A stretch of 64,000 nucleotides of DNA. It comes from Cyanidioschyzon merolae (Eukaryota). The DNA lies in NCBI GenBank assembly GCA_000091205.1, contig AP006489.2. One strand, given 5' to 3'. Positions 16,479-33,601 of this stretch are shown here, one piece after another. A program made the translations under genes and the position numbers. Position 1 is the first letter of the stretch. Every line of letters begins with the position of its first letter. The notes beneath the pieces were generated by a model. It was not told the origin of the DNA. It ran no database searches and was given only the letters and a program-made list of their open reading frames with translations.

Positions 16479-16978
16479 ATGAAGCGCGCAGGACGTCATT
16501 TTCCTTCAGTCGATGAGACTTCCTTCGTACGAAACGGTCGATGCCTATATGGGTATTCGTGGAGAGGGAGCTCGATTTACGTACGATCGAGCTCGAAGAG
16601 AAAGAACTCAGCATCTGCTCAAGCTGCAGTGGACTATTCGGCGGCCTCCTTTTTGCTCGTAGGTATTGGCATGTAAGTCGAGGATCCTGGAGGCTCGTCA
16701 TCACCGGCTGAAGAAATAAAACGAAAAAATCCTCTTCTTGCCCACCGTCGCGCGAAGAAGTGCAAGCGGAGAAGAAGAAGAGTGGATATAGGCCGGAAAA
16801 TGCTTTTGCCTGTCAAGACGATGACGAGACTGTTTTGTTAGAGAGGGTGCGAGTTCTGAGAATCTTTGCACAGATGAGTTCATCCAGCGGCAATAAATGC
16901 AAGGTGTTCATGAACCGAGACCTAAACGCCGCCATCAATATCAGACAATGTGTGCTGCTGAAGACGAGACTCGAGTAG
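16479..16978 (+). pseudogene. Degenerate TnpB/Fanzor-like (RuvC-like RNA-guided nuclease family) gene remnant, frameshifted
   Basis: A RuvC-II plus zinc-finger signature 'SVDETSFVRNGRC' sits at 16506-16544. A textbook RuvC-III signature 'CKVFMNRDLNAAINIRQ' sits at 16898-16945 in a different frame, and I verified its codons directly. The two motifs are about 130 codons apart, as in TnpB/Fanzor. No intact ORF spans both. Confidence 0.5.
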
Positions 16979-19487
16979 CTGGTGGAATCTAACTTTGTGC
17001 TCAAGCCTTTCAGGCTCGAAGAATTTAGGGAAAAACTAATGCTGGCAGAAAGCGTCCTGTCAAAAAAGCTGGGAAGCGCCAGTGGGTGAGTGTATATTCA
17101 CCCTACATGATCAGGGACATTTTCTGCATCACAAACAACGTATGTTGAAGCGGTCGGTATACTCAGAGCCATGATTTCTGGAACACCTTAACACACATGC
17201 TATGTTAGTTTTGCTTGTTTTCTCACGGCCGGTCGGCTCCAGGAATGTAGTCTTTCCATTAGAGAAAACCTGCGGAGAGAATTCGTGCTGTCTCTGCTAA
17301 CTTGGGCAAAATGGCTTACATCTACAAGTGAGTCACTCTACAGCCTCCAGACGAATTAACCACCCATATAGCAGTCCTTATCCTAAACAACGCTCGCCCA
17401 AAACAGATTGCATGAAACTCCTTCTGCACGACTCTCTCATAATCATTCCACCCCATCCCATATGATCTCCTAGCAATGCTACAAAAGCAGCCAAAAATGT
17501 GGAAGGTTTCAGTATCGTTGGTTCTATCGGAGTTGAACAGATTCGGAATGATAAACGGAAAGACGCGCTCAAAACGGAGAGCTTCGAGCTCCGAATAACA
17601 AGCACTACCGACTTTGTATTTAAACGCAAACAACAACTATAGTTGCCACGAATGTTCGTCTCCCTCGAAGAGAATTCATTCGCGAGAATAGTAATACTTC
17701 TATTTGGGTGCTCAGAGAGGGCAAACCTCTGTCTTTAACGCATCGACACGGGAGCATGACGAATATATCAACCAAAGCCGCAATGTGGTCGTGTGGTCAC
17801 CTACAGATCGCCAAACGGACATGATCGTTCAGTCCCTAGCCCTTCCTCGAGACACATTTCATGGCTTCTCTTTCGCACATTCTTGTCGTCTGCTCCGAGC
17901 CAATGTCGCTTTTCCTCATGTAACAGCTGTAAAGGAGTACCCAGCTCAGATCGACTTTGAGCTGCGTTTTATACGGACCTATTCTCCCCGGTCCGATCCA
18001 GACCATGCCGTCTTCTCTACTCTTAAATGCCATATCCATGCTCAAAAATGACAAGCGGACTCATTTGCATCCATGGAACCGATATATGAAGGACGCCGTC
18101 ATGCATCGTATGGCACCTCTTCGGTGGAAAGCTCGCTCAGCATCTGCTGCATTTACGCTCCGCGCCAGTCCTTCTTCGTCGGGGTTCTGGACGCAAAGCG
18201 TTTACGTGTCCACATTCGCCTGAAAATTTTTAATCAAAACTTCGATCGACAAATGATGCTCTAGACATAAGAGACAACACAACGAAGTAGTAGGATAAGG
18301 GCTTTGGATACATGCATCTTAGGATACTTAACACGTCGCCGCGCCAGGTCTGCGATCGGAATATCTACAGCGATGGTATCAAAACGTGGCAAACCACTCT
18401 CACATACCGAGACCGTATCCGCGTCGGTCTCGAGCTGTTCATGAAGCGCACCGTGTAGCCGTTCTAGCCTCACCTAGCAGGCCGAGACACGGAGGGATCA
18501 GCGGAAGGGATCCTTGTGTGTCGATAAAGGCAATCGACGTGCTGGTCCTGGCAGTGGAGGTCGAGATGGCAAGGTGTCGGAAGAGGATGTTGCACAGAGT
18601 GCGACAGTCGCATCCGATCGTCCGAGCTCACCGTGTTGTTCTCCACCACAGAAATATGCACGTCGTATTCAAAGAGTTTTCAGCACCTTGATGCACCCCC
18701 CTTTGCAACTTCCGGCCCGACGTTTTCCCCGAACAGAGCCTTCCGGAGCAGATCAGGTTCTCTTTCCGAATGCGAGCTATATCGCGTATCCAAGCTTCTA
18801 TTAGATAAGCCTCTCGTGTGTCAAATCAAGACTCGCCTTATCAGCGTAGACGCTTCCGCCCCGAGCGACATTCTCAGCGAAGTGTGGCTGGTTTCTGCGG
18901 GCAAGTGTGGAGAATACGAACACTTTCGCTAAGAGAATAGAGGGTTCGCTCATGTTTTCTGGTTTCCAGACGGGAATGGAGACAATACTAACACAAACAA
19001 TGTATACTTTCGGAATATCAAACTGCACGTACTTCGTGGGACCTATGTCTGAAACAGTCTGCGAGAATCTTTCTGACCCGTTCAGGATAATTGATGAGAA
19101 GAGTGGACAGTGTGTTTGCATCTCAGGCATAAGAGCACGAACGGCCTCACAGTACCTCTGAAGGAAGATAGCGAAGCCAAAGTTCTGAACGGATAGCAGA
19201 TAAAAGTTTCTGGCTGTTCCTGGGCTCGGGATCATAGAGTCTGTGGTGTTTCGGAGCGGAGGAGCCATACAACCAAAAGTAATGACAGCGTCAGGACCCA
19301 GCTCGACGCTCAAGAACACTGTATTGACCTGTGGAAGCCTTGCACGATTTATTCAGAGAGTAAACGATCGCTCAAGTTCCTAATGCGTACGATCCTTGAC
19401 AGAAATAAATAAAACAATGTTGGGGTCAACGTCCGCTTCCATTGCACCGACGGAGGAAGCGTCCATATACCCATTAGTTCAGTCAGT

Positions 19488-19850
19488 TTGAAAACGGAAA
19501 GAACCGAGAAGTCGCTTCATCTGGTGGTAGGCGATGGCGCTGAATATGCTCTGGTGCGCAAAGCCTGCATTCTGGCTCCTGAAACTAGAGCATTCAGTAA
19601 GTGCAGGAACCAAGTCTGTGCGATTCCCGTCGATTATAGAAGGATGACAAACACGCCTTACGAGCGAGATTGCATGCCGAAACTGGAAGGCGAGTTCAAC
19701 ATGAAACAGAGGCGTTTGTATACGATGGTCTACAGGAGGCTGATCGAACATCAGACTGCGAGGAAATCGAGAATGAGGAACCTGCTTTTTGATGATTCCA
19801 GCAGCAACAATGCGTACCAGCACATTCTGCAGCGAGCATTGATCGCCTAG
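19488..19850 (+). pseudogene. Diverged paralog of the 242-aa RuvC-like protein encoded in the 22.3-24.5 kb palindrome
   Basis: Protein alignment: 'LVVGDGAEYALVRKACILAPETRAFSKCRNQVCAIPVDYRRMTNTPYERDC' against 'LVVANGAGRWASKKGTTPAPSTRTYKECARRFATIPVDEFRTSYTLHELGC', and 'RMRNLLFDDSSSNNAYQHI' against 'RMKFVNRDFNAPINKSR'. The catalytic E is replaced (VDY), so it is probably inactive. Confidence 0.4.
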
Positions 19851-22332
19851 ATCATTTTCCGGAAATTTCTCCTGCTTCCCGGGCGTTCAGTGGCCTTGTA
19901 TCGAGCGAACTTTCGAACGATTCGATTAGTACTCAGAGTGAGCATTCCGCTGGAATGTGGAAGACATTAGATCAAGAAGTTCAATAGCAAGGAGAGTGGA
20001 AATTTGATGCTCGCCCATGTGAAGGCACAGGTATGGTACGGTACAACAATCTAGCCAGGCTTGGGCGCCAAGCACGAGCGACGGAAACGGCTTTTCCTAG
20101 CAATTGATAGAATATAATGGTGTTCTGTTCTTAAATAATACTGAATATTGCATAAACAAGTGCAAAAATATCGAACGCATGCATCTATGCAGCCATGGCA
20201 CACGATTCGCTGCGAGGCCGGCTGCGGTGCCTCTCGTGAATGGTAAAGGGTCGCTGAATGTAAACCAGGATCTGCAAGTCTTTTTGGTGCGCTTGATCGT
20301 CTAAACCACCGGGGGATCAGCAATTTCGAGAGCGATATCGGCTTCCGAGAAGGCGTCCATTTTTCTGTATCAAAACTCCAAAGTCTACCAGCTACCGCCT
20401 TAGCTTCTCATTCGAGACATTAGTCTGTTCGCGGCATCATCCGAGTACAAAGTCCTCCAAGAGCGTCCACTGTTACCGTCTACATGGCCGCGCTACCGAT
20501 CACGCCCGAAGAGAGGACTGCTTTGCCATACGCTTGTCGGCCTGGGGCTTAAGCTCTCGAATACGTCGTAATATTTTCCAGCAAGCTCACGTTGCAGTGC
20601 ACAGAGACCGCCTCGCATGAACCACTTTTGTACGTTGAATCGAGGGTCTTGACTAGTGTCGACCGTATTACAGCTGTTTGCGGATCATGGAATGTTACCT
20701 ATTTTGACCTCGAGGTGACTATTTGTGGCAACACCGGTGTCTAGGCATGCGGTAGCGCTCCTCGGGCCGTAGGACGCTTTTACCCTATCTTGTGTTTCGC
20801 TTCCATGTCCCATAATGTATAGGCAGAAGCGTTGAACGTTTCACACAGAATACGCAGCCATGCAACGTGTGAAAATTGGAGTCGACTCCTAAGCGTATTG
20901 CAGTAGCATGAAGAAACAACAGAAGCTCATGTTAGTTATCTCATTCGAGATAAAGACGGGTTACTGGATTTTGCAGTCATGTAGTTCGCGAAGAGGCTTC
21001 AGGATCCTTTTTAAAAGGGACAAGGCACATGCCTCGTCTTGAAATACTGGTTCATGTCCACAACGCGTTTGTCGGCCAACGACCATTTATTATGTGTTTG
21101 ATCCTCGAAGCGAAACCAATACTGGACTCTGCATAGTCAATGGCAAAGCATTCGCTCTAGTGTCAGATTTCGGTATGAGTAAATCTTTTGCTCCAGGGAC
21201 CGAAGATACGGTTCCGCACCACATCCCGATACGCTGGTGTAGTGGCCACCTTAAGGGACCACGTGCAATGGTGTGTCCATTGCAGACGTAAAACCTAGAA
21301 TCTCAGGGACTCGCTCGCGGAGCCGTGCTCCCGCAGTGCATCGTGCAATGTCATGTTGGTCGAAGACAGTATTTTCTGTCTCTCCAATGCTGCTCGAGAA
21401 ATGAAACCCATCCCTTCTTCGCATGAAGTGCATGTGTGTTGGGTTCTCAGTGAGGTAGGCATTCATCAAGAACCCCCAGCTGATCTAATAAGGAACACTC
21501 AGGTGCGCTCTTGGGCCAAGCATGAAGCTATATCGTCCGTTGAAAACTCCCGGCGGTCGTTCGATTCGCAAGCACCTTCCCTTATTCTATAATACGCAGT
21601 TGTTGTGTCCTCGTCCACGAATCCAAAAATTACGCTGGATTTTCGTGACCCGGCCTGGCGGTCTGTAGAATGTGTACTCGCGCTGGAGTCTGCGACGTGT
21701 CTGTTTTTAACAATACCTTCGATATGGGAGCTCATGCGCAAAGCTTGATCAAGATTGCTCAACTTGAGCATCGCATGCATAGGGACGGCAATCACGACTT
21801 CAGGCTCTCTACGAGACGTAATTATCCGTTCTTCAGTGCGAGTCTCCGACTGAGGTGACAGGGCGTTGATCGCTCGGCCAGAAGGCGGCGACCCGACAAT
21901 GCAGCAACGCACGTGAAAGCAGGCACGTTCACTCCCCAGAATGCACTGCGCAGAGTGTAGCTCCTGGACCATGGAGTCCTCCTCGAACAGAGGCCCTAAC
22001 AAGCCCGTGGGAAAGGTTGCCGAATCCGAATAAACCACTTCGACATTGGACCAACACCGAAGTTTTGTTAAATCTGCATATACTTGGTAAAGCGCAGCGT
22101 ACCAGCGCTCTGGAGGCGAGTCCACACAGCTCTTCGCAAGACGAATCGCATCGTGCCCAGCCAGGAAACTGCTCCGGTCTCGTTCCGCAACACTGTCGCT
22201 TTCCACCTCTACCATAAAGAAAAGCGCGCTCTCGCAGGTTCGAAATGCCGGACTTTCCAGCCCCAACGATTGACTCGGAAAACGTCCGATTCGATGAACC
22301 TGACTGCTTGGAGCCGCACGCACGCACGGACA

Positions 22333-23300
22333 AAACGCCTTTCAAAAGAAAAATGCTGTCGCCGGCCGTGTACAGGAGTGGCGAATGGTGCGCCCTAGAC
22401 TAGACATCTCCAACCGACGTGCAGACGCCTCCCAGTGCTTTTGGAGCGGCCACCTACTACTGCTTCCAATTGTTTCTCATATAGTTCGACTTTGAGAGGT
22501 TCTCTTACAAAGTTCTCTCTTGTCCATTCTGGAGGACTTTTCTCTAGTACCGCACATCTACTTTTATTGATAGGGGCGTTAAAGTCTCGATTCACAAACT
22601 TCATTCGTTTCTTGCCATCACTGGTTGTACTTACTAATGGAAGTAGTCCACGAACTTTCGCCCTCCTTTCCATTTGCTCTTCCGTTAGCGGTCCGTACTT
22701 TTTTATATCCTCAGGGCTCTGCTGACACTTTTCCATCTCGACCCTCTGAAGTGCACACCCCAGTTCATGGAGTGTATAGGACGTTCGGAACTCATCTACA
22801 GGTATCGTAGCGAAACGCCTTGCGCACTCCTTGTACGTTCTTGTTGACGGAGCTGGCGTAGTCCCTTTTTTGGACGCCCAGCGCCCTGCTCCGTTTGCTA
22901 CAACGAGCCTCTCACTCTCGTCCTTCTTGAGGGCGCTCAACTCATTGAAAAAGTTCGCGAACGCCCGCTGCTTTTCACAATACAAATTCATTCGCAAACG
23001 AGCCCACCGGGGCTTTGTGCATTCTTTCCAAAGGCTCTCGTCATGAGCAGCGTGAATTTTCATAACCTCTCGAAAAGCTTCAATGTCGGCTCCCCGGCTC
23101 GTCACATGGCTGATCGCTTCCAAATTCCCTTAACACCTGAATTCGATGTCTCACTTTTCTTCCTTGCATTCATTATACGGGATTCTCGATGGTATCTCGC
23201 TCATGAGAGCATCAACAGACTTATGTCTTTCTGACGTAAGTTACCATCAGTACCATCTTCCGCACGCTTGGGTGCTGCGACAGTTATGATATTTGTGTTC
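22333..23300 (-). repeat. Left arm of inverted repeat
   Basis: Reverse complement of 23546-24513. The outer boundary is defined where the flanks diverge: left rc '...GAAAGGCGTTTTGTCCGTG' against right '...GAAAGGCGTTTGTTTTCGG'. Confidence 0.7.
22395..23123 (-). CDS. Compact (242-aa) RuvC-like TnpB/Fanzor-related protein, copy 1
   Basis: It carries 'ATIPVDEFRTSYTLHELGC' (RuvC-II E plus TS plus Cys) and 'KKRMKFVNRDFNAPINKSRC' (RuvC-III RDxNAxxN). A possible degenerate RuvC-I 'LVVANGAGRW' lies only ~35 aa upstream of the E. An in-frame stop lies 2 codons upstream of the listed TTG start in the (+) copy, so the frame is at most ~245 aa. That is much shorter than known TnpB (~400 aa) or Fanzor. 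Confidence 0.55.
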   Translation of the reverse strand: MEAISHVTSRGADIEAFREVMKIHAAHDESLWKECTKPRWARLRMNLYCEKQRAFANFFNELSALKKDESERLVVANGAGRWASKKGTTPAPSTRTYKECARRFATIPVDEFRTSYTLHELGCALQRVEMEKCQQSPEDIKKYGPLTEEQMERRAKVRGLLPLVSTTSDGKKRMKFVNRDFNAPINKSRCAVLEKSPPEWTRENFVREPLKVELYEKQLEAVVGGRSKSTGRRLHVGWRCLV

Positions 23301-23321
23301 CAAGGGTCCACACCAACGACA

Positions 23322-23460
23322 AAGTCCTTACCCTGCACCTCCTGCATCGCAGGATCCGCACTCTTCTCATCTACATGTTTCGCCTAGCCGTCTACAAGGT
23401 TGTACTTCTCCAACTCCTGCGTCGCAGGATCCGCATCCTTCTCATCTACATCCTTCGCCA
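23322..23460. repeat. Tandem ~65-bp direct repeat (2 units) at the palindrome centre
   Basis: Unit 1 is 'CCTGCACCTCCTGCATCGCAGGATCCGCACTCTTCTCATCTACATGTTTCGCC'. Unit 2 is 'CAACTCCTGCGTCGCAGGATCCGCATCCTTCTCATCTACATCCTTCGCC'. Each contains a GCAGGATCCGC core with a BamHI-site mini-palindrome. Confidence 0.6.
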
Positions 23461-23545
23461 CGGGCGAAGCCGAGGACGGACCAGGAGGCGGGCCCGACAG
23501 CGCTGGAGGTGCAGAAGAACGATTTCTCGTTGGCGTGGACTCTGG

Positions 23546-24513
23546 GAACACAAATATCATAACTGTCGCAGCACCCAAGCGTGCGGAAGATGGTACTGAT
23601 GGTAACTTACGTCAGAAAGACATAAGTCTGTTGATGCTCTCATGAGCGAGATACCATCGAGAATCCCGTATAATGAATGCAAGGAAGAAAAGTGAGACAT
23701 CGAATTCAGGTGTTAAGGGAATTTGGAAGCGATCAGCCATGTGACGAGCCGGGGAGCCGACATTGAAGCTTTTCGAGAGGTTATGAAAATTCACGCTGCT
23801 CATGACGAGAGCCTTTGGAAAGAATGCACAAAGCCCCGGTGGGCTCGTTTGCGAATGAATTTGTATTGTGAAAAGCAGCGGGCGTTCGCGAACTTTTTCA
23901 ATGAGTTGAGCGCCCTCAAGAAGGACGAGAGTGAGAGGCTCGTTGTAGCAAACGGAGCAGGGCGCTGGGCGTCCAAAAAAGGGACTACGCCAGCTCCGTC
24001 AACAAGAACGTACAAGGAGTGCGCAAGGCGTTTCGCTACGATACCTGTAGATGAGTTCCGAACGTCCTATACACTCCATGAACTGGGGTGTGCACTTCAG
24101 AGGGTCGAGATGGAAAAGTGTCAGCAGAGCCCTGAGGATATAAAAAAGTACGGACCGCTAACGGAAGAGCAAATGGAAAGGAGGGCGAAAGTTCGTGGAC
24201 TACTTCCATTAGTAAGTACAACCAGTGATGGCAAGAAACGAATGAAGTTTGTGAATCGAGACTTTAACGCCCCTATCAATAAAAGTAGATGTGCGGTACT
24301 AGAGAAAAGTCCTCCAGAATGGACAAGAGAGAACTTTGTAAGAGAACCTCTCAAAGTCGAACTATATGAGAAACAATTGGAAGCAGTAGTAGGTGGCCGC
24401 TCCAAAAGCATTGGGAGGCGTCTGCACGTCGGTTGGAGATGTCTAGTCTAGGGCGCACCATTCGCCACTCCTGTACACGGCCGGCGACAGCATTTTTCTT
24501 TTGAAAGGCGTTT
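23546..24513 (+). repeat. Right arm of inverted repeat
   Basis: See left arm. The inner boundary is the shared 'GGAACACAAATATCATAACTGTCGCAGCACCCAAGCGTGCGG'. Confidence 0.7.
23723..24451 (+). CDS. Compact (242-aa) RuvC-like TnpB/Fanzor-related protein, copy 2 (1 aa different: I vs T)
   Basis: Identical to copy 1 apart from KSIGRR versus KSTGRR. It has the same RuvC-II and RuvC-III motifs. The listed start is TTG, so the true initiator is uncertain. Confidence 0.55.
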   Translation: MEAISHVTSRGADIEAFREVMKIHAAHDESLWKECTKPRWARLRMNLYCEKQRAFANFFNELSALKKDESERLVVANGAGRWASKKGTTPAPSTRTYKECARRFATIPVDEFRTSYTLHELGCALQRVEMEKCQQSPEDIKKYGPLTEEQMERRAKVRGLLPLVSTTSDGKKRMKFVNRDFNAPINKSRCAVLEKSPPEWTRENFVREPLKVELYEKQLEAVVGGRSKSIGRRLHVGWRCLV

Positions 24514-27500
24514 GTTTTCGGGGTGTTTCCGGGCTCAACAAGAAACGCTCGTTCCCATTTAGATGCATGTCGTTGCATAAATCGGACTCGAACCAGTTGC
24601 TGGTCAGTCTGGTAGTGGAGCACGCGAAACGGGCGACACCACCTCCCGAGGAGAGTGGAATTCTCTTCGACGAGAAGGGTTCGCAAATAAGCGAGCACCA
24701 TGCTGCACCCGCATTGGAAGGAAGCTCTGCAACGTGGCCTTTTGTGCCCGCAAGGCCTAGAGAAGTTTCGTCGGGAAGCGATAATGCTTGTGAAAACGGC
24801 CGCGCTCTCAGAAGATTGCACCGGACGCCTTCACCGGAAGTAACTGGCTCTGGTTCACCGACTAGTCACGCCAACGTAGTCGGAACCTGTTTCGTCACCG
24901 GGTTTGTGGTGGAAAAAGACGACTCTGGAACGGACGTAACCGGATGCGGAGAGTCACGTGCGTCCGAGAAAACATCAGGTCGTCCTTTTCGTCGTGAGGT
25001 TACAGCTGCAGACTCCAGGCTGAACCTGAGCGGGGAGCACTTGGCCTGTGTGTCGCTTGAGCAGCTTCGCTCTCTACCTTCGCTAGCCGCGCTGAATGAA
25101 ATATCTCTTGCATCGAATAGTTTACGAAGTGTCGACTTGCGTCCACTTGCTTCCTGCCGCTCGCTGCAGGTCCTGTTACTGAACGATAACTTACTGGAAC
25201 GCATTGACTTGACGCCATTGGCAAGTTGCTCGCAGCTTGAACGACTCTGGCTGCATAGGAACAAGCTGAAACATATCGATCTGAGTCCGCTGGCCATAAG
25301 CGGAAGTGCGTTGAGGTCGCTGTACCTCAGCCGCAACGAACTGCAGGAGATCAGTCTTGCTCCTCTTGAAAAGTGCTCGAAGCTTCGCGCTTTGCAGTTA
25401 GAGGGCAACCCAAACCTCAAAGAAATAGACGTCACCCCACTGTTTGCGTGTAGAGAGTTGAGCAGTTTCGAAGCCCCCCCTCAGGCTCGGCTTATAGTTC
25501 GTGAACTGGCCGCACTGGAAGTGCAGCGCCGCAGTTATCAACAAGATTGCAACTCACTGGCCAATGTAGAGTCCAGTGAGAGCGCTCGCACCGCTGCGAT
25601 CATGCCGAGCAAACTTGTGTTACCAAAGGTATTCCGCCGCAGAGGTATTGTCTTACACTGGATCAGAGAGGCATTGCCTGACGCGAACTTGAGGGATTTA
25701 ACTGGGCAACGATCTTTGAAAGAGAACAGTGTGAATGCGGAGCTGCAGGATGCCGAACGCGGCGAGGGAATTCAGACGAACGCTTCTATGAATATAATTG
25801 CACCTGCATCCGAGGAAGCACTCTCGTCCGTGGCCGAGTTGCAAACGGGCCCCACGGCATCGAGGAACTTGGAGTCAGTGCAAGAGGACAAAACGCCTCT
25901 TTGCGCTCTGATTGTCGGGATGACCACGCATCGCCGAATATCAACTTGTCGGTTACTTGAGCAGTCGGGGACGTTGAGGGTCCTCCAATCTCCTTCAGCC
26001 GCAGCTGCACTGGATGCTTACATCAGCGCACCAGACGGGATTGACTTGATTCTGATGGAACCTGCTGAATATGAGGTCTTTTCCGAACAAGCGCAGGCAG
26101 CCTCCATTGAGATCAGCGTGCCGGTGGTGGCGGTTGGTCCTCCGGAGTTTGAACGCTCTGGCGTTTTTCGGCGGTGTATTGCCATAGGTGCAAGGGGTTT
26201 CATATCTTTTCCGTTGGATAATCGTGATGCACAGGCCTTGACGGAGGTTGCCCGCAGCTTTCGCGCATCTCGCCAAACTTCTGCTTCGCAGGTTTTGAAG
26301 GAATCCAGTGTATCCGAGTTGCTTTTGCCTACACAAGAGGTTCGAGCGGATTCGACAAGTGTTAGCCGCGATCTCTCGCCGATGAGCATGACGAACGGAA
26401 GCGATGCATCCAAGTATGGGGCAGGTATAGAGCCTGACTCCAAATGGGTCCCGTCCTGGTGGCAAAACTCCGATTCCATTCGCAAGGAAGGAAACTCCAG
26501 TCCGGCAGCCGTTTCCGACCGGATGGACACGTTTCTTTCGAAATCGGAAGGTGTCGAGGATATAGCAGAGGAGTCTTCTACGTACCGTTTTATCCAGCGC
26601 GCTGGAATTGGACACCTCCGCTCGGGGAGTCCTATATGCCGCAGTGGTTCCGAGAGCTCGCAATTTGCTTGTGAAAGAGCTGAATGGGCCAGAGTTGAGG
26701 CTATTTTCGCGCATCGAGATAAGCGACCGAGTCGAGAGCCTTGCTTCCAACTGCAGTTCATGCAACATTGCTCGAATCCTGCCACGCTTTTGATACCGAC
26801 CGATGGTTACCATTCTGCTGGCCTGGAGAGATTTGCTGATATCGCAGCAGTCTGTCGACTACCAAAAACCAGTGCTACTGTGCTGTTTCTACGTGTGCTT
26901 TCCCACCAGGATAAGCTCGCTAACAGCGGTACAAGCTCGATATCCAATGCTTTAACGCGATCAGCGAGCGAGTCGGTGTCTTCGAATTGCTGGTTGCGAA
27001 ACATCCATGTAGATGCCTTTTATCACTTTTACCGTTGCAAGCTCGCACCGATCCGATCACCGCTTGAGCGCTTCTATAATGTAATTGCATCTTCATGGCC
27101 TGGAAGTGACATACACGATTCATCTTCGTCCCTGTATGCGGAAGGAAAAATACGCAGACTGAAAGAATCCAGGGCAAGGTACGTTTCGAGATACACAATA
27201 ACCCTTTTGATTCAGGAGCTGGTTTATCGGAAGCTTTGTGTCGGGAGAAACGCTTCTGGCGTTGCAGTCCCGTATCATGCAGCGAAAGCAAATCAGGGAC
27301 AGATGAGATCTGCCCGGTATTCGTATCAGGGGAAGAGCTTTCTGTCTTCGTCAATCAATCAGAGCGGAAGCGCATCAGCGATGGAGTCCGCACACTTCTC
27401 CAGCAAGAACGGAGAAGCTGCGAGGAATGCTTTCCTTGCCTTTCGGGATGAGGTTTGTGAGGTTCTCCTTACCGCCTCCGTCGCAAGTGCATGTGTCTGG

Positions 27501-28556
27501 TTTCATCTAGGTGGCGGAAATCGAAACTATGTTCCGCTATCGATTCTGCGAAAGGTGCGCTTTGCTGAGGCAATCTTCGCGGCTGAACGCGGCATCATTG
27601 TGGATAGTTTGATGGAAATGCTTACCGGGAATGGCATCGCGCTGGTTGCCCAGAAGGAGCTCGAGACCGTCTGGAACTATAACGCACGCACTGGGACTGC
27701 AACATCGGAGCAACTAGCGTCGCGAGATGCTCCGAGCTTTGAATGCTCGATTCCTTCTGTCTCTGGATTGTCTTCCTCGTTCCCAGAACAGCAAAGCGAC
27801 GGCGCTGTCACGCAGGCGCCTTCAGGGGCTACCGAGTCCAGGGAGCAGATAGCGGGTGCAATACGTTCTTCATTTCTTCCGGACACATTTGAGTTTTCGA
27901 AATGGTGCAGAAAATTCTGTATTTCGCGAGAGGCTGCCGTATCCTACTTCCTGGATCGGGGTTCGCTCGTTCCCAAGGCAGTAGAGCAAGTGTTGAATCG
28001 TTTCCGTGGATTATCGCTCGTACAGAAACCCGCGTCCAGTGAGCACAGCGCTGCAACGCCTCAGCTCCAGGACGAGAAGACGGTTCCCGAGGATCAGAAT
28101 CTGGCACCGTTCAGCAAGTTAGGAAACGCTTCCGTAGGTGACTCTCTCAGTCCGTCGGCTTTCGTGCACCTCTTCCTGGCGTTGTGTGATCCTGGCAACG
28201 AGAAAGCACTGCACATCTTTTTTGATATTATGGATCTCGACATGGATGGGTTTATCTCAGCGGCAGATGTTGCGTACTTTTATCGAGAAAAATGCGAGAT
28301 CGCGTTTCGAGAGGGCCTAGTGCTCGCGTCTGCAAATAATCTATGGGCGCAGTTGGTAGATATGTGCAGAACGTCGGCAAATGATCCCAAACTTGAATCC
28401 AAGGGCATTACACTGAAAATGCTTCGGGATATCGGAGAGAGGCGTCGCTCCAGTTTCATTCGCAATGTGCTTTTCAAGGACGATGGCATGGCACTGGTAG
28501 ATATTCAACAGACTTTGCGGTTGGAAAACAGTCTCGCGCTCCTGAGCCAACCGTAG
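24501..28556 (+). CDS. Leucine-rich-repeat protein with C-terminal PP2A regulatory subunit B''(PR72/TON2)-type EF-hand domain
   Basis: N-terminal SDS22-like LRRs: 'LSGEHLACVSLEQLRSLPSLAALNEISLASNSLRSVDLRPLASCRSLQVLLLNDNLLERIDLTPLASCSQLERLWLHRNKLKHIDLSPL...'. The C-terminus 'FVHLFLALCDPGNEKALHIFFDIMDLDMDGFISAADVAYFYREKCE...KGITLKMLRD' is collinear with PR72 '[41 protein letters not shown]...GKITLQDLKR'. The listed start is TTG inside the repeat arm. The true start is probably the ATG at about 24567 (MSLHKSDSNQ). Confidence 0.75.
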   Translation: MKGVCFRGVSGLNKKRSFPFRCMSLHKSDSNQLLVSLVVEHAKRATPPPEESGILFDEKGSQISEHHAAPALEGSSATWPFVPARPREVSSGSDNACENGRALRRLHRTPSPEVTGSGSPTSHANVVGTCFVTGFVVEKDDSGTDVTGCGESRASEKTSGRPFRREVTAADSRLNLSGEHLACVSLEQLRSLPSLAALNEISLASNSLRSVDLRPLASCRSLQVLLLNDNLLERIDLTPLASCSQLERLWLHRNKLKHIDLSPLAISGSALRSLYLSRNELQEISLAPLEKCSKLRALQLEGNPNLKEIDVTPLFACRELSSFEAPPQARLIVRELAALEVQRRSYQQDCNSLANVESSESARTAAIMPSKLVLPKVFRRRGIVLHWIREALPDANLRDLTGQRSLKENSVNAELQDAERGEGIQTNASMNIIAPASEEALSSVAELQTGPTASRNLESVQEDKTPLCALIVGMTTHRRISTCRLLEQSGTLRVLQSPSAAAALDAYISAPDGIDLILMEPAEYEVFSEQAQAASIEISVPVVAVGPPEFERSGVFRRCIAIGARGFISFPLDNRDAQALTEVARSFRASRQTSASQVLKESSVSELLLPTQEVRADSTSVSRDLSPMSMTNGSDASKYGAGIEPDSKWVPSWWQNSDSIRKEGNSSPAAVSDRMDTFLSKSEGVEDIAEESSTYRFIQRAGIGHLRSGSPICRSGSESSQFACERAEWARVEAIFAHRDKRPSREPCFQLQFMQHCSNPATLLIPTDGYHSAGLERFADIAAVCRLPKTSATVLFLRVLSHQDKLANSGTSSISNALTRSASESVSSNCWLRNIHVDAFYHFYRCKLAPIRSPLERFYNVIASSWPGSDIHDSSSSLYAEGKIRRLKESRARYVSRYTITLLIQELVYRKLCVGRNASGVAVPYHAAKANQGQMRSARYSYQGKSFLSSSINQSGSASAMESAHFSSKNGEAARNAFLAFRDEVCEVLLTASVASACVWFHLGGGNRNYVPLSILRKVRFAEAIFAAERGIIVDSLMEMLTGNGIALVAQKELETVWNYNARTGTATSEQLASRDAPSFECSIPSVSGLSSSFPEQQSDGAVTQAPSGATESREQIAGAIRSSFLPDTFEFSKWCRKFCISREAAVSYFLDRGSLVPKAVEQVLNRFRGLSLVQKPASSEHSAATPQLQDEKTVPEDQNLAPFSKLGNASVGDSLSPSAFVHLFLALCDPGNEKALHIFFDIMDLDMDGFISAADVAYFYREKCEIAFREGLVLASANNLWAQLVDMCRTSANDPKLESKGITLKMLRDIGERRRSSFIRNVLFKDDGMALVDIQQTLRLENSLALLSQP

Positions 28557-29379
28557 GTAGATGAACGACGAGTGCGTCAGGTTGACTTCAGGGTTTGACA
28601 ATCTTGTACTGTCGCATTGGAACGACTGCGTTCTCCTGGTGCTGGACAATGGAACTCAGCTGTACATGAAGGACACCGCATATTTCGTAATCGCGCTCGC
28701 ATCGAGCTCGCTGCAGTTGCATGCTCTTTTCGGACGATTAACGGCCATGCACGGCTGCGAACATGATTATGCAGTTCGCGTCGGCGTCGCTTCTAGAGGT
28801 GTACGCCCAAAGATCCGTTCCAGTGCGCAGAAATCTCTTATGTCTGCTCTGAGCGAAGCTCGCATCGGCACTTACGGAGCTGCTTCTGTTCCCAAAGAGA
28901 CCAAATGGAAGTCTCAAGCATTTCCGCAGGCGGACACCAATAGTGCTTCCGTAGCTGAACGAGCTATCGCCCGCGCAAGTGCACCTTGCAAATGGATGGC
29001 GCGCTCCTGTGAACGCACTGGAGCCGGCTTGACACCCATGCCAGAATAGCGTGGAATGTGTCCACTTTGCAAAACTCGGACGTACACGCTGCACCCATGT
29101 CAGAATAACATGGAGCAGCTCCTCCAATACGGGCGCACGCGCCTCAAGTGGGTCCATTCCCATTGTCATGAACACCAGCCTCGCGTCCTTGTTCTCCAAC
29201 TGTTTCTTTTTCTCTCTCTTATCTCGGGCTGTAAATATGCTAGTCTCACGTTCATTCAAGCTACATTGTGACCTTGCTAAGGATTATGATGGGTGCATAA
29301 ATGCTCCGATTTCGTGATTGCCGTCTGATTTCAACGCATTTCATGCATCGATGGAAGTTGAGATCTAGGCATCGCTTGC

Positions 29380-30190
29380 AATATTCATCTCCTCTGTATA
29401 CAGCCTAGGTGCGCATTTCGCAACAATGACAGTTGGATGAGATGAGGTGTCCCCATATGTCCATCACGCCTGCCTCTTCTCCGCAGGCCGATCCAAGCCG
29501 TATGAACACGTGCTTGATCACTGAATACATGCTCTTGACGAACACAGAAGGCTTCCCACGAGCTCACCTCCATGTCGACGCCCCGTGCCGTAAAATATGA
29601 ATATGGGCTTCTTCTGGGCGGTCACCCCAGCGAGTACTCTGGATGCTGCATATGCAACGGTAAGCAATTCGATTTGATGAATGATTTGGAGAACGCGATG
29701 CGGTCCATGATGAAACACGCAGTCTACGAAAAATCTGGACTGGAGATCAACTCGAGGAATCTGGAGCCGGCTACGCTCCCTACTTGGAAGCTGGGGACAC
29801 ACTCTCTACTGGCAGCAATCGCTGCATTGGCTAAAGTCTGAAACCAAGGCCTCTTGCTTACGAAATAAACCGGACGGGAGCCCCTGGGCACATGTCGTGT
29901 AAGCGGTGCCATGCTGTTGCCGAATGCCGTATCGTCGAGAGCCACAAATGTGAGAAGATTCATCCTTCGACCGGAACTGGTTCTTTGACGTGGAAAGTTC
30001 AGTGATCATTCGGCATGAGCCTGTGATCAGATCTTTAGGAGACGGCGTCGAGTTTTTCCCCAGCACTCCAGCGGACGAATCACCGCGCCTACGAGTTCGC
30101 GTGAAACAGAAAGATCGAAAACTTGAGGAATTCGTGATTGGAACACGTTGCACGTTGGAAAACGAGAAGATTGGAGGCTTGTACGTGTGA
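29380..30190 (+). repeat. Dispersed repeat family, copy B (core ~29603-30140)
   Basis: 'ATATGGGCTTCTTCTGGGCGGTCACCCCAGCGAGTACTCTGG...GATTTGGAGAACGCGATGCGGTCCATGATGAAACA...GTCGAGTTTTTCCCC...GAAAGATCGAAAACTTGAGGAA' aligns with copies A, C and D. Confidence 0.6.
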
Positions 30191-31342
30191 ACTGGATGTC
30201 GGTATCGCGTATTTTTTGGAACTCTAGTTTGAGGACGTCGCAAATCTCCCTTACGATGAATACGTCAGGAATTACAGGAGCAGAGCGTCGAAGGAGCCAC
30301 GTCCAAAACGCAACCGAGACTCGTACAACTGCGCATGAATCCATAAGCTCTCATTGCTGCACTTCGGATGCCTAGGCTGTCTAGCCAAAAAGCTTTCGAA
30401 AAAATTCGCAACGCGGGAACAGAGCGAGCAACTTAGTGTTCATTTTACTCTAAGACGTGTCTAGGCAGCAACATGGGGCATCGAGTGATGCGGTACACAG
30501 TACTGGCGCTCGCCTCAACGCACTCGAGTATAATCGATGCTCACTAGGAATTGCCAGTCCCCAGTTACAGGGACGGGATTGCTGAACCACCAACGCATTC
30601 GCATTTGCTGTGTCCAGGCTGGCAACGAGTTCAGAGCCGCGCCCCTCATGAGCAGCCGCCTCTGGGGCTCGTGTCAGACATTGACGGGCCGCTGCTGACA
30701 TAGGAAACCGTTCTGGAGCCCGACGCTGTCGTGCGCGAGCACCTAGCCACCCTGGCGGCTGTGATGCGCAACTGCTAACTCCTGCAAGAAAGATTCCACG
30801 AACTGGACGTGTCAGATGAGCCAATGAGCCGAGCGCCCCCGCTGTTGCAGGTGTCGAGCGAAGACCTGCGTTGGAAGGCGGCAGCGCTTTTCTAAACGAC
30901 CACAAAGGAGGCGCTCGAAGCTGAGGCTATGTCCTAGTCGCCGAGTTCCGCCAGCGCTGCGTTCATCGCAGTGTGGTAACCTATGCCACAAGCCAGGGCA
31001 GAAAGCGGTAGTGGAAGCCTTTACGCTTACTGTGCGACTTCTGGAAGTCGCTTGACCCCTTGACTTCGACATCTCCAAGTTACACAGGCTTAGAGCTGGC
31101 GAAAAGTGGAGCTGTTTGCGAAGGAACTAGTGTATATTTCCTGGGTTTCTATAACAATCGCACATTAAAAGGAGTCTGCTGCGATTAATCGATCGTGTAC
31201 AAGACAGAGCCACAACGCTGCCTTTCGAGAAACAGCACCTCATCCGTTTCGCACTCGGGAGGCTCGTCCAAATTTTTGCTCCAAATTTTTTCTTGGTTCC
31301 CTGTGAGACGCTTTGGACGAGTCGTGGTCTGTTTCCTTCTAA

Positions 31343-32404
31343 ATGTCGCGTTTAGGGCCACTATATTATGCACTTGTATTTTTCATGGTCTTAGCTTACT
31401 TGAGCTTGCCTCTTGGAAAGGTCAGCTGTTCGGGGCTGGGCACTGATCCACAGGCAAACGACCCGGAGCAGCAACCCTGGCACGTGCACCCTACCTCTTT
31501 GGCGGATGTCGGCCAGTTGCAGTACTCGAGAAGTCTGCACAAACGTCGTTCTATTTCAGAGCCCGAGGCAAATGGTGATTCCAGAAATATGAGTGACTTT
31601 GTGCGGACTGCCACAGAACCCCCCCGTAACCGCTCGTTGCCGCTTTTCGTCTTCGTGGCCGGGGTCGAGGGCTCTGGACACCATGCCTTGGGCATCGCTC
31701 TGGAGCGGTGCTTTGACGTTTCGTTCTCGTTTGCTCCTGAAGTGTGGGTTGCTCAGTATTACAGCTTCACGCCGTACGTGTGGACGAGGGCGAGCGATTT
31801 TTACGAGCGGCTAGCTGCGAATAGCTATGGAGCGTCCGTTATTGGAGCACGAGCCGTGTTGGACTATCAACACTCATTTCCGTTCGGTTGGTTCCGATCG
31901 ACACTTTTTCATCCGGATCTTAACATTCTCAGGGAGCTTGATGGCGAATACTTAGATCTTCGTGTCATATTTTTGCATCGGGATCCAACAGATACGGTCA
32001 TCTCTGCGTTGAAACGCGGGTTTGTCGACGATCCCTTCCTGCAGGCGAGAATCGTCGAAGCTGCCCTGATGTATATGGACCGCTTCATAGATAAGATGGC
32101 GCCGGAGAAGGTGGCTGTAATCCATTATAACAGGTACAGAGAGCGTCCTTTAGAGTACCTGGAAACACTGTCGCGCGTCGCAGGGTACTGCAACAAGGAG
32201 GACTTGCGCGACTTTATCGTTGAAGCAGAACTAATCATAGATAGATTCAGAAAACAGCGTTTGGAGGGCAACGAGCCCAAGCAGTGCCCAAGAAGCAATC
32301 GAAGACGTCCCGAAGACTGCGATGACTTTGAAAAACGAATTCGCGCCTGGTTCGCAGCACGCTCCAAGTATTGGCCACGGTTGGCAGAAGAGCGCCTCTG
32401 GTAG
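31343..32404 (+). CDS. Secreted/Golgi sulfotransferase-like protein
   Basis: An N-terminal signal/anchor 'LGPLYYALVFFMVLAYLSLPLG'. A PAPS 5'-phosphosulfate-binding-like loop 'FVAGVEGSGHHAL'. A 3'-phosphate-binding-like 'FLHRDPTDTVISALKR' (RDP.D motif of sulfotransferases). Confidence 0.5.
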   Translation: MSRLGPLYYALVFFMVLAYLSLPLGKVSCSGLGTDPQANDPEQQPWHVHPTSLADVGQLQYSRSLHKRRSISEPEANGDSRNMSDFVRTATEPPRNRSLPLFVFVAGVEGSGHHALGIALERCFDVSFSFAPEVWVAQYYSFTPYVWTRASDFYERLAANSYGASVIGARAVLDYQHSFPFGWFRSTLFHPDLNILRELDGEYLDLRVIFLHRDPTDTVISALKRGFVDDPFLQARIVEAALMYMDRFIDKMAPEKVAVIHYNRYRERPLEYLETLSRVAGYCNKEDLRDFIVEAELIIDRFRKQRLEGNEPKQCPRSNRRRPEDCDDFEKRIRAWFAARSKYWPRLAEERLW

Positions 32405-32935
32405 AGTCGACGGGTGTACAGCAAGAGCAGCAACAGCACTGGCAACTGCAGCGCTGTTCGCCTGGTATGTACCAGCGTTCACTTTTCCCTAAAGTGGCAT
32501 ATCTTGCCCGAAAAGGGCCCGTCTATGAACCAGCAGGAGCGCAACGCATGCCCGCAGCGCTCGACCTGATGACGTCGTGATTAGACTTGCATTCTGCAGT
32601 CGCAACAGCAAAAGCAACAGCAAATATCGATCATATGGATATGCTTCGTCAAGAAGCATGTTCCAATATCGTGTCCCGCGACACTGCAATGCACAGCTTC
32701 CAGTACTTATCCAGTAGGCTGATCCGAATGAACGAGTCTCGAGATTCCATTCGAAAGCCCGGTGCCTTTTGCTCTCGTCGAGCGATCATTTCTAAAGCGT
32801 CAGTGCGCTGCAAGAGATCCAGGAAATCTTTCTGGCATCCACGGACCCATGGAGGTCCCCCAGCTCCAAAGCGCCTCTCGATACCTTGCGCATGAAGGCC
32901 GCTGCGATTGCAGCAGATCCTGCCGGTATTCGCGG

Positions 32936-33601
32936 CTAGGTTTCCTTATCTAAGGGTACTGTTTCTTCCAATTCACGCAGAAGACAAACACGAATTTCGT
33001 TGCATTCATCACCACGCAACATATCACGCGTGAAGCTCGCCCTCACAGAAAACTGCACCATTTCGAGCGCTCCCCGGATCACGCCGCAGAAGATATTGCT
33101 GTACCAAAGCGTGTTCGCTACTGCATCAGGTACCTCCACGAATTCAGCGAGTGGATTTGTGTCGAATAGTATGGAGTATGCTGTGTTGTCCGCGGCGAAG
33201 TTTGCAGGTCTCGCGCTCACTCCGAGGTACATTCGGAAAGCGACCCGTGCAACTATCTCAGCAGTTGCTTGAAAGGAACGACAGGGTGGTGCTGCAGACC
33301 GTGCTAAGAAATCATCGACTAAACGAAGTCCGATATTGTAGCCTATTCTTTCGAGCTCCTCGTTGACATCCTCAGGGGCCTGGTAGTCCAAAAAGAGCTG
33401 GCGCACGAGCGCTCCGTACGTCAGCGCAACCAGTTCAGCGCTAACTAGCTCTCCTCTTTGAAAAGCTTGCTCTCCGATCTTAGCAAGAGCAGCAACGTTG
33501 AACCCCGCAGACGGGAGCGTATCCTGCGTTTTTACACTGGTAGCGCTCGAGCTCCGCCCCGACTGGCTGGTGCTGGCGCGCTCCCCGGAGGGCTCAAACA
33601 T
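32936..33601 (-). CDS. TRAPPC3: TRAPP complex subunit 3 (Bet3)
   Basis: 'ELVALTYGALVRQLFLDYQAPEDVNEELERIGYNIGLRLVDDFLARS...FQATAEIVARVAFRMYLGVS...SILFDTNPLAEFVEVPD...LWYSNIFCGVIRGALEMVQFSVRASF...GDECNEIRV' is collinear with human TRAPPC3 '[47 protein letters not shown]...'. Confidence 0.9.
   Translation of the reverse strand: MFEPSGERASTSQSGRSSSATSVKTQDTLPSAGFNVAALAKIGEQAFQRGELVSAELVALTYGALVRQLFLDYQAPEDVNEELERIGYNIGLRLVDDFLARSAAPPCRSFQATAEIVARVAFRMYLGVSARPANFAADNTAYSILFDTNPLAEFVEVPDAVANTLWYSNIFCGVIRGALEMVQFSVRASFTRDMLRGDECNEIRVCLLRELEETVPLDKET

Follow-up and report, generated by a model that had tools for sequence, protein, structure and literature searches.

We analysed a window of 64,000 nt of nuclear DNA from Cyanidioschyzon merolae 10D (GCA_000091205.1, contig AP006489.2), in which two divergent host genes, CMG080C and CMG083C, are separated by a 2351-nt spacer. 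The locus lies on chromosome 7, and the species assignment is based on proteins that match 10D entries exactly. A palindrome occupies 2181 nt of this spacer. The intervals 22333-23323 and 23523-24513 are inverted relative to each other, measure 991 nt each and are 99% complementary. The near-perfect 2.2-kb palindrome described in the first-pass annotation is thus real, with five mismatches between its arms and a 199-nt spacer. The features of the locus are:

21499-22215, minus strand: host gene CMG080C, Sen15-domain protein of 238 aa; start codon 118 nt off the left arm
22320-22394, minus strand: 3'-terminal structured region of the left copy; end at about 22320, last ~13 nt unlike the right copy
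22333-23323, minus strand: left arm, 3' part of the 'long' Fanzor1 copy (probably CMe-1A); apparently homogenised part 22333-23301
22395-23123, minus strand: residual 242-codon ORF of the left arm; Glu codon 22791-22793, Asp codon 22584-22586
23201-23203, minus strand: left-arm mirror of the premature TGA stop
23306-23308, minus strand: RuvC-I Asp mirror codon of the left copy (GVDPWNTN)
23324-23522, no strand: spacer and head-to-head junction, 199 nt between the arms
23333-23459, minus strand: two coding repeats with a 75-nt period; 52-nt matches at 23333-23384 and 23408-23459, 87% identity
23523-24513, plus strand: right arm, 3' part of the 'short' Fanzor1 copy (probably CMe-1A); near-identical part 23545-24513
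23538-23540, plus strand: codon for the RuvC-I Asp in the right copy (GVDSGNTN); not part of the 242-aa ORF, frame different
23643-23645, plus strand: premature TGA stop of the right copy, 'LLMLS*ARYHRES' against 'LLRFSRARYYRES' in the family
23715-23725, plus strand: frameshift of ~1 nt between '...SNSGVKG' and 'NLEAISHVTS...', mirrored in the left arm; the 242-aa ORF starts just downstream
23723-24451, plus strand: residual 242-codon ORF of the right arm; TTG start, first ATG 23783, RuvC-II Glu 24053-24055, RuvC-III Asp 24260-24262
24452-24526, plus strand: 3'-terminal structured region of the right copy; GGCG/CGCC hairpin, then a long terminal hairpin; end at about 24526
24567-28556, plus strand: host gene CMG083C, LRR/EF-hand protein of 1329 aa; start codon 54 nt off the right arm

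Four of the arm mismatches fall within the innermost 22 nt and the fifth at column 889, so that a single one of 969 sites separates 23545-24513 from 22333-23301. Past the arms, the copies stay weakly homologous for another ~45 nt inward, where they are ~22% diverged. The true ends of the element lie ~13 nt outward of the identical arms, and these outermost ~13 nt differ between the copies. This leaves a gap of about 40-118 nt between the pair and either host start codon. Host ORFs had been said to begin exactly at the arm boundaries, at 22323 and 24501, but those ORFs exist only if GTG/TTG initiation is allowed; the annotated CMG080C and CMG083C start at 22215 and 24567, outside the arms. A short imperfect inverted repeat (I3) sits at the inner edges of the arms.

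The centre of the palindrome is coding in origin. On the minus strand, the coding sequence of the left copy extends 5' through ~23324-23486 and reaches about residue 92 of the homologue P0025, and ~23501-23522 holds the first bases of the right copy. A separate tandem-repeat core, as previously proposed, therefore does not exist. Two direct repeats are indeed present there, although not as ~65-bp units: the matches measure 52 nt and recur with a 75-nt period. Their translations, 'AKDVDEKDADPATQELEKYNLVDG' and 'AKHVDEKSADPAMQEVQGKDFVVG', form a linker repeat immediately N-terminal of RuvC-I whose copy number varies in the family (at least six units in P0034, one unit missing from L054).

To place the arms in a protein family, a profile of 43 relatives was compared with the whole PDB. 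The sole matches were the solved Fanzor1 structures 9cf0 (Parasitella, E 4.8e-19) and 8gkh (Spizellomyces, E 9.7e-11), with alignments passing through DPGR, DEFRTS and NRD. The earlier assignment of the arm ORFs to the TnpB/Fanzor superfamily is thereby confirmed, as is the reading of VDEFRTS and NRDFNAPIN as RuvC-II and RuvC-III, since the two motifs coincide with the family's invariant columns for Glu and Arg-Asp (invariant in the profile are D421, E592 and R657-D658). The profile was needed: a single-sequence PDB search gave no relevant match, Pfam returned no significant family for the ORF or for the upstream piece and nothing for six longer homologues, and PF07282 matched weakly in 4 of the 43 family members. 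AlphaFold2 on the 413-aa homologue, with an alignment of close relatives, gave no usable model (mean pLDDT 36).

In the Fanzor motif of Bao and Jurka, the RuvC-I Asp is followed 125-275 residues on by [TS][TS], which the RuvC-II Glu immediately precedes (PMC3627910). At the DNA level only, the Asp codon at 23538-23540 lies ~174 codons from DEFRTS (24050-24070), within Fanzor1 spacing. NRDFNAPIN (24254-24280) aligns with the invariant R657-D658 and fits a RuvC-III RD placed 5-50 residues after the finger region. The C4 (CxxC...CxxC) zinc finger itself is absent, and the window reads 'TSYTLHELGCALQRVEMEKCQ...STTSDGKKRMKFVNRD' between RuvC-II and RuvC-III. The CxxC pairs are missing from both the subfamily and the wider-family consensus, so the deviation extends beyond this copy to the whole clade. 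Fanzor1 of Spizellomyces, SpuFz1, carries a CCCC zinc finger (8gkh; Saito et al. 2023, PMC10432273). The profile-level homology to SpuFz1 and to Parasitella parasitica Fz1 (9cf0, PMC11423790) spans a WED-proximal strand, RuvC-I (DPGR), RuvC-II (DEFRTS) and RuvC-III (NRD), and the gene points to the transposon end where those systems encode their omegaRNA. Unlike them, the window copies are interrupted and lack ~60% of the protein, and the C. merolae subfamily is without CxxC...CxxC.

The element probably corresponds to the published CMe-1A of Bao and Jurka 2013, judging by species, protein type, copy divergence and the lack of TIRs. CMe-1A has ~150 copies, each ~80% identical to a consensus of ~3 kb whose 5' 635 bp are common to TE-N2_CMe, and is without TIRs (PMC3627910). 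The window copies lack that 5' part. Identity between the window arms and 80 other copies, which have C. merolae genes in their flanks, is 77-83%. As in CMe-1A, the copies encode Fanzor1 in the same species, are ~80% alike, and are in many cases decayed; single copies have neither TIRs nor a detectable target-site duplication. The paper describes single elements of ~3 kb (PMC3627910), whereas here two 5'-truncated copies of ~1.0-1.2 kb stand head to head, and the composite, present at several chromosomal sites, is absent from that paper. The family is a known one, and the homogenisation of its copies at this locus is ordinary though well documented.

Each arm carries an outward-reading ORF of 242 codons, which contains VDEFRTS, NRDFNAPIN and LVVANGAG and stops 62 nt from the arm end, in agreement with the ~60 bp noted before. 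As also noted, the two ORFs differ by a single residue, which is Thr (left) or Ile (right) at position 230. They had been interpreted as compact nucleases of ~240 aa. If so, each arm would encode a functional RNA-guided nuclease of the RuvC/TnpB type, hypercompact and paired with a guide RNA of its own that reads outward. In either arm all 242 codons are open, the RuvC-II Glu and the RuvC-III Arg-Asp are retained, and the family has a structured 3' terminus. Even so, we regard such a nuclease as extremely improbable. The ORF aligns to just the last third of full-length relatives of 600-700 aa and is the surviving 3' piece of a Fanzor1 gene for ~650-700 aa. Nothing is left of the WED/REC part, which binds guide RNA and target, and measured on 699-aa relatives the window copies start around residue 400-420. 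In terms of P0025, a 413-aa homologue that aligns with the C-terminal ~400 residues of full-length relatives, they cover residues ~92/102-411 and ~113/121-411. About 60% of the Fanzor1 protein is therefore gone, and the last ~40% is kept together with the structured 3' end.

The reading frame of what remains is broken as well. LVVANGAG had been taken for RuvC-I, but the true Asp codons (23538-23540 and 23306-23308) lie upstream of the ORF in another frame, behind the TGA stop and the frameshift. Since these two lesions break the frame, no nuclease can be produced. The ORF depends on a TTG start under a bacterial-style definition, its first ATG is codon 21, and it has no protein annotation in 10D. 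Of 86 family copies, only ~10 have the corresponding region fully open; the break points vary from copy to copy, and decaying copies typically retain open stretches as long as this one. The better-preserved arms of paralogous units share no common ORF either, and the test of whether the frame is kept open was negative for these arms and for the arm ORF. The 242-aa ORF is no more than the longest stretch still open in a decayed gene. This removes a false lead, in that there is no 240-aa RuvC nuclease at the locus.

The 3' end had been singled out as a possible guide-RNA region, and the family does have a conserved structured terminus there. When each copy was folded and scored against shuffles and against its antisense strand, the terminal hairpin reached p<=0.05 in 20 of 46 copies, and the sense strand beat the antisense in 40 of 46. 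In both window arms the hairpin is degenerate (z = -0.8 right, z = -0.2 left). RNAalifold on the 3' ends recovered at first just a 3-bp GGCG/CGCC stem and then nothing, because two hairpin variants occupy shifted registers. Rfam gave no match in 22000-24900, and across copies the 3' terminus is no more conserved than the coding body. The strand-specific hairpin predicted from the sequences is compatible with a putative omegaRNA, though unspecific. TnpB elements of the IS200/IS605 family have hairpins in subterminal position, and their omegaRNA is located at the right end (summarised in PMC10432273). As in those elements, a RuvC nuclease gene here reads into an end that forms a strand-specific hairpin; unlike them, the element is eukaryotic and without TnpA, and the role of its hairpin, as transposition signal or RNA scaffold, is only putative.

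The head-to-head arrangement recurs elsewhere. Six other loci (L054, L057, L062, L070, L071 and L072) carry a colinear junction that is ~90% identical to the one here, and their similarity to the window ends at the arm ends. Within each paralogous unit the two arms are 72-78% identical. The units are flanked by exact matches to 10D proteins of other chromosomes, at least three besides this one. These loci were found as metagenome contigs, of which at least L054 looks chimeric or recombinant, so the count of distinct genomic sites may be too high. The exact protein matches to 10D genes nevertheless speak for real sites. At the palindrome studied here, the 20-nt flanks have no k-mer of 4 nt or longer in common, and a search for a target-site duplication was negative. 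We also considered whether the other loci are orthologues of this one, and ruled this out by the genes of other chromosomes in their flanks. Since the junction is common to units whose arms are only 72-78% alike, the unit is old, formed once and was dispersed. This contradicts the earlier suggestion of a very recent duplication. Arm-sequence distances are ~80% to everything, and shared ancestry is visible solely in the junction and in the diagnostic sites described below.

At the window locus, arm identity is 99.9%, versus 72-78% in the paralogous units, and it steps sharply at 23545/23301 and 24513/22333, with diverged homology past both. We compared three independent short-copy arms with five long-copy arms, which yielded 49 diagnostic sites that predate dispersal. 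Both window arms are of short-copy type at 31 of 35 sites in 23545-23827 and of long-copy type at 7 of 7 sites in 23834-23892, then again short-copy and then long-copy. This M-P-M-P pattern is identical in the two arms, as it also is with a set of 94 sites. The TGA stop is a derived marker of the short-copy lineage and is present in both arms. The same mosaic in both arms, together with the sharp boundaries, suggests arm-to-arm gene conversion in both directions, and the contrast with the paralogues further favours this option, one of those raised in the first-pass annotation. Divergence between strains is 0.41% (4/969) in the arms, close to the 0.48% of the flank, against 0.10% (1/969) between the 10D arms; with the other strain's arms collapsed in short-read contigs, this bears only indirectly on ongoing conversion.

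In primate Y-chromosome palindromes, the subject of work by Rozen et al. in 2003, the arms are reportedly held identical by arm-to-arm gene conversion. The resemblance extends to near-identical inverted arms around a unique spacer, sharp identity boundaries, two-way sequence transfer, and perhaps a between-strain divergence above that between arms (here with the other strain's arms collapsed). The Y palindromes differ in measuring 10 kb to over 1 Mb, against 1 kb here, and in holding genes under selection rather than dead transposon fragments. The C. merolae locus offers a clear case of two-way conversion in a near-perfect 1-kb palindrome, set in one of the smallest free-living eukaryotic genomes, with diverged paralogues as an internal control that is usually missing elsewhere.

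Taken together, these data make it highly probable that the locus holds two 5'-truncated Fanzor1-element copies without function, an old head-to-head pair homogenised by gene conversion. The head-to-head unit arose once and, bounded by two 3' termini, then spread to at least four chromosomes, probably by transposition. The arms of the paralogues have since drifted to their present identity. Here the inverted arms would have converted each other repeatedly within the chromosome, in either direction, so that 969 bp per arm were overwritten and divergence survives only in the ~45 innermost and ~13 outermost nt of the homology. A recent one-step palindrome, formed from one truncated copy by fold-back priming or template switching, would instead explain the arm identity by youth. 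It accords with the single difference in 969 sites and with the I3 repeat at the inner edges. Against it, the same junction in six loci shows that the head-to-head arrangement predates about 20% divergence, the inner ~45 nt are homologous yet ~22% diverged, the outermost ~13 nt are unlike between the arms, and a fresh copy of a single arm cannot yield a mosaic of both lineages. We consider recent one-step formation very unlikely, and reject a single-step fold-back origin in view of the common junction and the mosaic.

MDA and some assemblers are well known to produce exact kilobase-scale inverted repeats as artefacts, and every short-read contig of this region breaks at the arms. These breaks fall exactly at the repeat boundaries, however, as expected of a true repeat. 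The junction of left flank and left arm is reproduced in at least 10 contigs from independent assemblies of other samples, L002 covers the inner end of the left arm, the centre and the right arm, and L001 covers the right arm and its flank. All four junctions thus recur in independent assemblies, and the palindrome is therefore not an artefact. Another strain has the same four inner-edge differences, and finishing of the 10D genome relied on shotgun reads and BAC clones, without MDA (PMC1955436). We accordingly attach almost no probability to the assembly or amplification artefact that had been raised as a caveat. Compatible with the preferred reading, but unlikely, is that the structure was retained and homogenised for host or transposon use, as a bidirectional promoter/5'-UTR region for CMG080C and CMG083C or as a source of two outward guide RNAs used in trans by an intact Fanzor1. 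The filling of 2181 of 2351 nt of spacer in a very compact genome, the conservation of the locus in other strains and the strand-specific hairpin at the family's 3' end would fit such a use. The terminal hairpins are degenerate in both arms, however, the 3' end is not preferentially conserved, and gene conversion between inverted repeats works without selection.

Foldback elements and double-Ds-type composites are head-to-head or foldback derivatives of DNA transposons. The old Fanzor1 pair resembles them in that transposon ends make up its long inverted arms, an intact transposase is missing, and the composite occurs in several genomic copies. It differs in that its parent is without TIRs and both of its outer ends are the parent's 3' end. 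In contrast to foldback elements, the arms are unique coding sequence without tandem subrepeats, the two 75-nt units being confined to the centre; there is no target-site duplication, and mobility as a unit is only presumed. It is unlikely that the unit is a mobile non-autonomous derivative that needs for its movement only two inverted CMe-1A 3' ends with their long terminal hairpin, and whose outward omegaRNA-like guides are used in trans by intact Fanzor1 proteins from other places in the genome. If true, the guides at its ends would read into flanking host DNA, and Fanzor1 breaks could drive repeated arm-to-arm repair at the locus. The conserved strand-specific hairpin and the lost canonical zinc finger offer leads on Fanzor biology that concern the family, not this dead locus, and the spread of a unit with a 3' end on either side gives a hint as to which end of this unclassified element matters for mobility.

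The palindromic locus consists of two truncated, non-functional transposon copies placed head to head, and their family has been described before. A repeat finder resolved two arms of 991 nt each, 99% complementary around a 199-nt spacer, and together with pairwise alignment this upheld the near-perfect palindrome proposed in the first-pass annotation. The arms and their surroundings are arranged as follows.

21502-22215, minus strand: CMG080C, start codon 118 nt outside the left arm
22333-23323, minus strand: left arm (long copy)
22395-23123, minus strand: left-arm ORF, 242 codons, reading outward
23523-24513, plus strand: right arm (short copy)
23723-24451, plus strand: right-arm ORF, 242 codons, reading outward
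24567-28553, plus strand: CMG083C, start codon 54 nt outside the right arm

Two proteins encoded in the window match C. merolae 10D proteins exactly. The divergent genes CMG080C and CMG083C are separated by 2351 nt, of which the palindrome takes up 2181 nt. Host ORFs had been placed exactly at the arm boundaries, but this holds only with GTG or TTG starts. Both arm ORFs use a TTG start, with the first ATG at codon 21, and their products differ at a single residue (T/I at position 230). Four of the five arm mismatches fall within the innermost 22 nt and the other at alignment column 889; thus, 23545-24513 and 22333-23301 differ at 1 of 969 sites. This sole difference within the homogenised tract lies at 24411, where a T gives Ile in the right arm of strain 10D only, and the 10D left arm and both other-strain contigs carry C (Thr). 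Either the T arose recently and has yet to be converted, or it is a sequencing error.

An assembly artefact was ruled out. Shotgun reads and BAC clones were used to complete the 10D genome from telomere to telomere (PMC1955436), and every palindrome junction is reproduced in independent metagenome assemblies. One contig (L002) spans 23172-24513 at 99.4%, covering the inner end of the left arm and all of the centre and right arm, and another (L001) spans 23545-34454 at 99.5%. At least ten contigs with CMG080C, from JGI, ENA and Logan samples, enter the left arm for 30-300 nt with 0-4 mismatches and then end. Contig ends fall precisely on 23545 and 24513, the pattern that short-read assembly graphs give at a true exact repeat.

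Next, we consider the identity of the ORF. Neither a Pfam search of the 242-aa product nor a PDB search with a single homologue gave a match. The product has 204 unnamed homologues, the longest of 413 aa, which extend upstream of the ORF with '...KDEDEKEADPATQKVQDNDFVVGADPGNTNIITIAAPKRAEDGTDGNLRQKDMRLLRFSRARYYRESG...'. The window encodes a broken equivalent, 'FLVGVDSGNTNIITVAAPKRAEDGTDGNLRQKDISLLMLS*ARYHRES...SNSGVKG' in one frame, shifting at ~23720 into 'NLEAISHVTSRG...'. Among 1.84 billion representative proteins, 1273 relatives were found; intact ones are 600-700 aa long, and the 413-aa homologue matches their C-terminal ~400 residues. Against the whole PDB, a family profile built from 43 of these relatives matched exactly two entries, both Fanzor1: 9cf0 from Parasitella parasitica (E 4.8e-19) and 8gkh from Spizellomyces punctatus (E 9.7e-11). 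The alignments run across DPGR, DEFRTS and NRD, and the invariant columns include D421, E592 and R657-D658. These data identify the window family as Fanzor1 and bear out the suspected TnpB/Fanzor homology, with VDEFRTS as the RuvC-II and NRDFNAPIN as the RuvC-III motif. The RuvC-I Asp is not in LVVANGAG, as had been suggested, but in the upstream GVDSGNTN/GVDPWNTN (codons 23538-23540 and 23306-23308); LVVANGAG aligns with the consensus strand 'VVAYGxAKF'. Nor is the ORF a hypercompact ~240-aa nuclease: it corresponds to about the final third of a Fanzor1 protein, and ~60% of the gene is absent in both copies. An AlphaFold2 model of the 413-aa homologue, built from a close-relative alignment, was set aside at a pLDDT of 36. 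Upstream of the 413-aa ORF at the related locus L003 (387-875), the fragments 'MDISVREKLRDAIKKRVDSYS...' and 'MKYLTNLKNHLTMNLE...' resemble the N-terminal consensus 'KYxTNxKNHL' of full-length relatives, so even the 413-aa homologues have lost part of an original gene of ~700 aa.

SpuFz1 has a canonical CCCC zinc finger (PMC10432273), whereas this finger is missing throughout the clade containing the window copies. The CxxC...CxxC signature, which defines TnpB/Fanzor in the motif of Bao & Jurka, is absent from all ~1270 relatives (family-wide alignment A2; homologues P0025, of 413 aa, P0013 and others; window 24056-24253). The C. merolae subfamily has 'HHELGC...x9...C' in its place. Pfam PF07282 was touched, weakly, by only 4 of 43 members.

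The centre was described as a tandem-repeat core with two ~65-bp direct repeats. Two direct repeats are present, but as 52-nt matches 75 nt apart with 87% identity, and they belong to coding sequence. The minus strand of the centre encodes '...PPGPSSASPVAKDVDEKDADPATQELEKYNLVDG*AKHVDEKSADPAMQEVQGKDFVVGVDPWNTN...', a 25-aa linker repeat that sits just ahead of RuvC-I in this family, so the centre continues the left copy in the 5' direction. The linker repeat varies in copy number, from at least six units in the homologue P0034 to the loss of one unit at the related locus L054. The left copy extends to ~23486, which matches residue ~92 in the 413-aa homologue, and the right copy begins at ~23501. 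Inside the near-perfect arms, the copies share ~45 nt more homology with ~10 mismatches and a 1-nt indel.

Head-to-head copy pairs occur at seven further loci on metagenome contigs. Their junctions are colinear with window 23545-23324 at ~90% identity, indicating that the unit formed once. Similarity to the window ends at the arm ends, and the flanks are unrelated to those of the window.

L072 flanks: CCT7 and a SWI/SNF-like protein, exact matches, 1.62-Mb chromosome
L063 flank: phosphoserine phosphatase, exact match, 810-kb chromosome
L054 flank: protein in the 90% cluster of CMP022C, 908-kb chromosome

These flanking genes put copies of the unit, which has an element 3' terminus at either end, on at least four chromosomes, and the dispersal of such a composite is of some interest. 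No target-site duplication was found at the window copy. Among the contigs, L054 (Ga0080006_1144583) looks chimeric or recombinant: it is 96.5% identical to L072 through the left flank, short-copy arm and centre and only 87% identical in the other arm, and on the right it is flanked by a gene from a different chromosome (CMP022C cluster). It is either a contig chimeric at the repeat or the product of ectopic recombination between two head-to-head units.

The first-pass annotation explained the arm identity by very recent duplication or by gene conversion, and the paralogous units, whose arms are only 72-78% identical, allowed us to weigh the two. The junction is asymmetric and orients the comparison: the window left copy corresponds to the paralogues' long-copy ('+') arms and the right copy to their short-copy ('-') arms. 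Three independent short-copy and five long-copy arms yielded 49 diagnostic sites within 23545-24028, positions that differed before dispersal. Both window arms show one identical mosaic.

23545-23827, both arms: short-copy type at 31 of 35 sites, including the TGA stop and frameshift area
23834-23892, both arms: long-copy type at 7 of 7 sites
23917 and 23926, both arms: short-copy type
23932-24028, both arms: long-copy type at 4 of 5 sites

A set of 94 sites from full-length arms shows the long-copy type almost throughout the outer ~600 nt. Each arm would be expected to belong wholly to one lineage, so the same mosaic in both indicates copying in both directions, that is, gene conversion. Such cleanly demonstrable bidirectional conversion at a palindrome is of some interest. 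The homogenised tract also ends inside the homology, at 23545/23301 and 24513/22333; being shorter than the homology at both ends, it fits conversion rather than fresh duplication. We therefore rejected a recent origin, which the shared mosaic, the tract limits and the junction common to diverged paralogous units all contradict. The four inner-edge differences recur in a second strain, whose arms depart from 10D at 4 of 969 sites (0.41%, from arms collapsed in short-read contigs), with both 10D arms agreeing there, and whose flank departs by 0.48% over 9.9 kb. This suggests, with the second-strain arms collapsed, that homogenisation continued after the strain split.

CMe-1A, the C. merolae Fanzor1 element, has ~150 copies, each ~80% identical to a ~3-kb consensus; it lacks TIRs, and its TSDs were undetermined and its class unknown (Bao & Jurka 2013, PMC3627910). 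Identity between the window arms and 80 related loci from hot-spring metagenomes is 77-83%, and several of these loci are flanked by exact C. merolae 10D proteins. Membership of the window copies in CMe-1A fits, as matched to the published description rather than to the Repbase consensus. Of 86 copies, only ~10 keep the arm-equivalent ~310 codons fully open; the others are broken at varied positions, making a 244-codon open stretch typical of this decaying family.

Similarity across a 69-sequence alignment stops shortly past '...GTCTAGGGCG-loop-CGCCACTACTGTACAC...CGTCGTTCGACTTTCGAACGGCGTT', and window arm identity stops at GGCGTTT. Well-preserved copies carry a long terminal hairpin extending ~13 nt past the end of arm identity (L072, 19 bp, z = -5.2; L076 and L016, z ~ -2), and several alignments reach 24526-24530, which places the true element ends near 22320 and 24526. 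These last ~13 nt differ between the window arms, and both window hairpins are degenerate (z = -0.8 and -0.2). We folded the terminal 34 nt of 46 distinct copies. Mean energies were -10.1 (sense), -7.05 (antisense) and -6.75 kcal/mol (shuffled); 20 copies folded better than 95% of shuffles, and sense beat antisense in 40 owing to G.U pairs. The stem occurs in two variants and includes at least one double compensatory change; the variants lie in shifted registers, which accounts for the failure of RNAalifold. Sequence conservation was not higher in the 3' region than in the coding body, and an Rfam search gave no match. In characterised Fanzor and TnpB systems, the omegaRNA comes from the corresponding element end (PMC10432273); the hairpin could be either an RNA scaffold or a transposition signal. 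Directly past the 3' terminus, many copies have GT/GTGC-rich microsatellite-like sequence (L031, L080, L035, L045, L052, L073; window 22316-22329), such as (GCAC)n on the window left flank and a long (GTGC)n after L031. The element may prefer such sequence as its target, or a tail may be added when it inserts.

Searching the window by tblastn with P0025 revealed four further Fanzor1-like coding relics.

324-746, plus strand: Fanzor1-like coding relic
10690-10890, minus strand: Fanzor1-like coding relic
16844-17038, plus strand: Fanzor1-like coding relic
19521-19913, plus strand: Fanzor1-like coding relic

They are short and more diverged (25-48% identity, E 0.002 to 4e-12), so the 64-kb window holds several older Fanzor element fragments. 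The original transposon estimate of 0.7% of the genome (Nozaki et al. 2007, PMC1955436) probably missed most decayed Fanzor elements. Self-BLAST also detected a dispersed repeat of ~0.8-0.9 kb.

29310-30137: dispersed repeat copy
46890-47877: dispersed repeat copy
52856-53765: dispersed repeat copy

ORFs of one copy had no obvious identity. The copies are ~64% identical to each other, the repeat is also present in L001, and it may represent another old transposable-element family.
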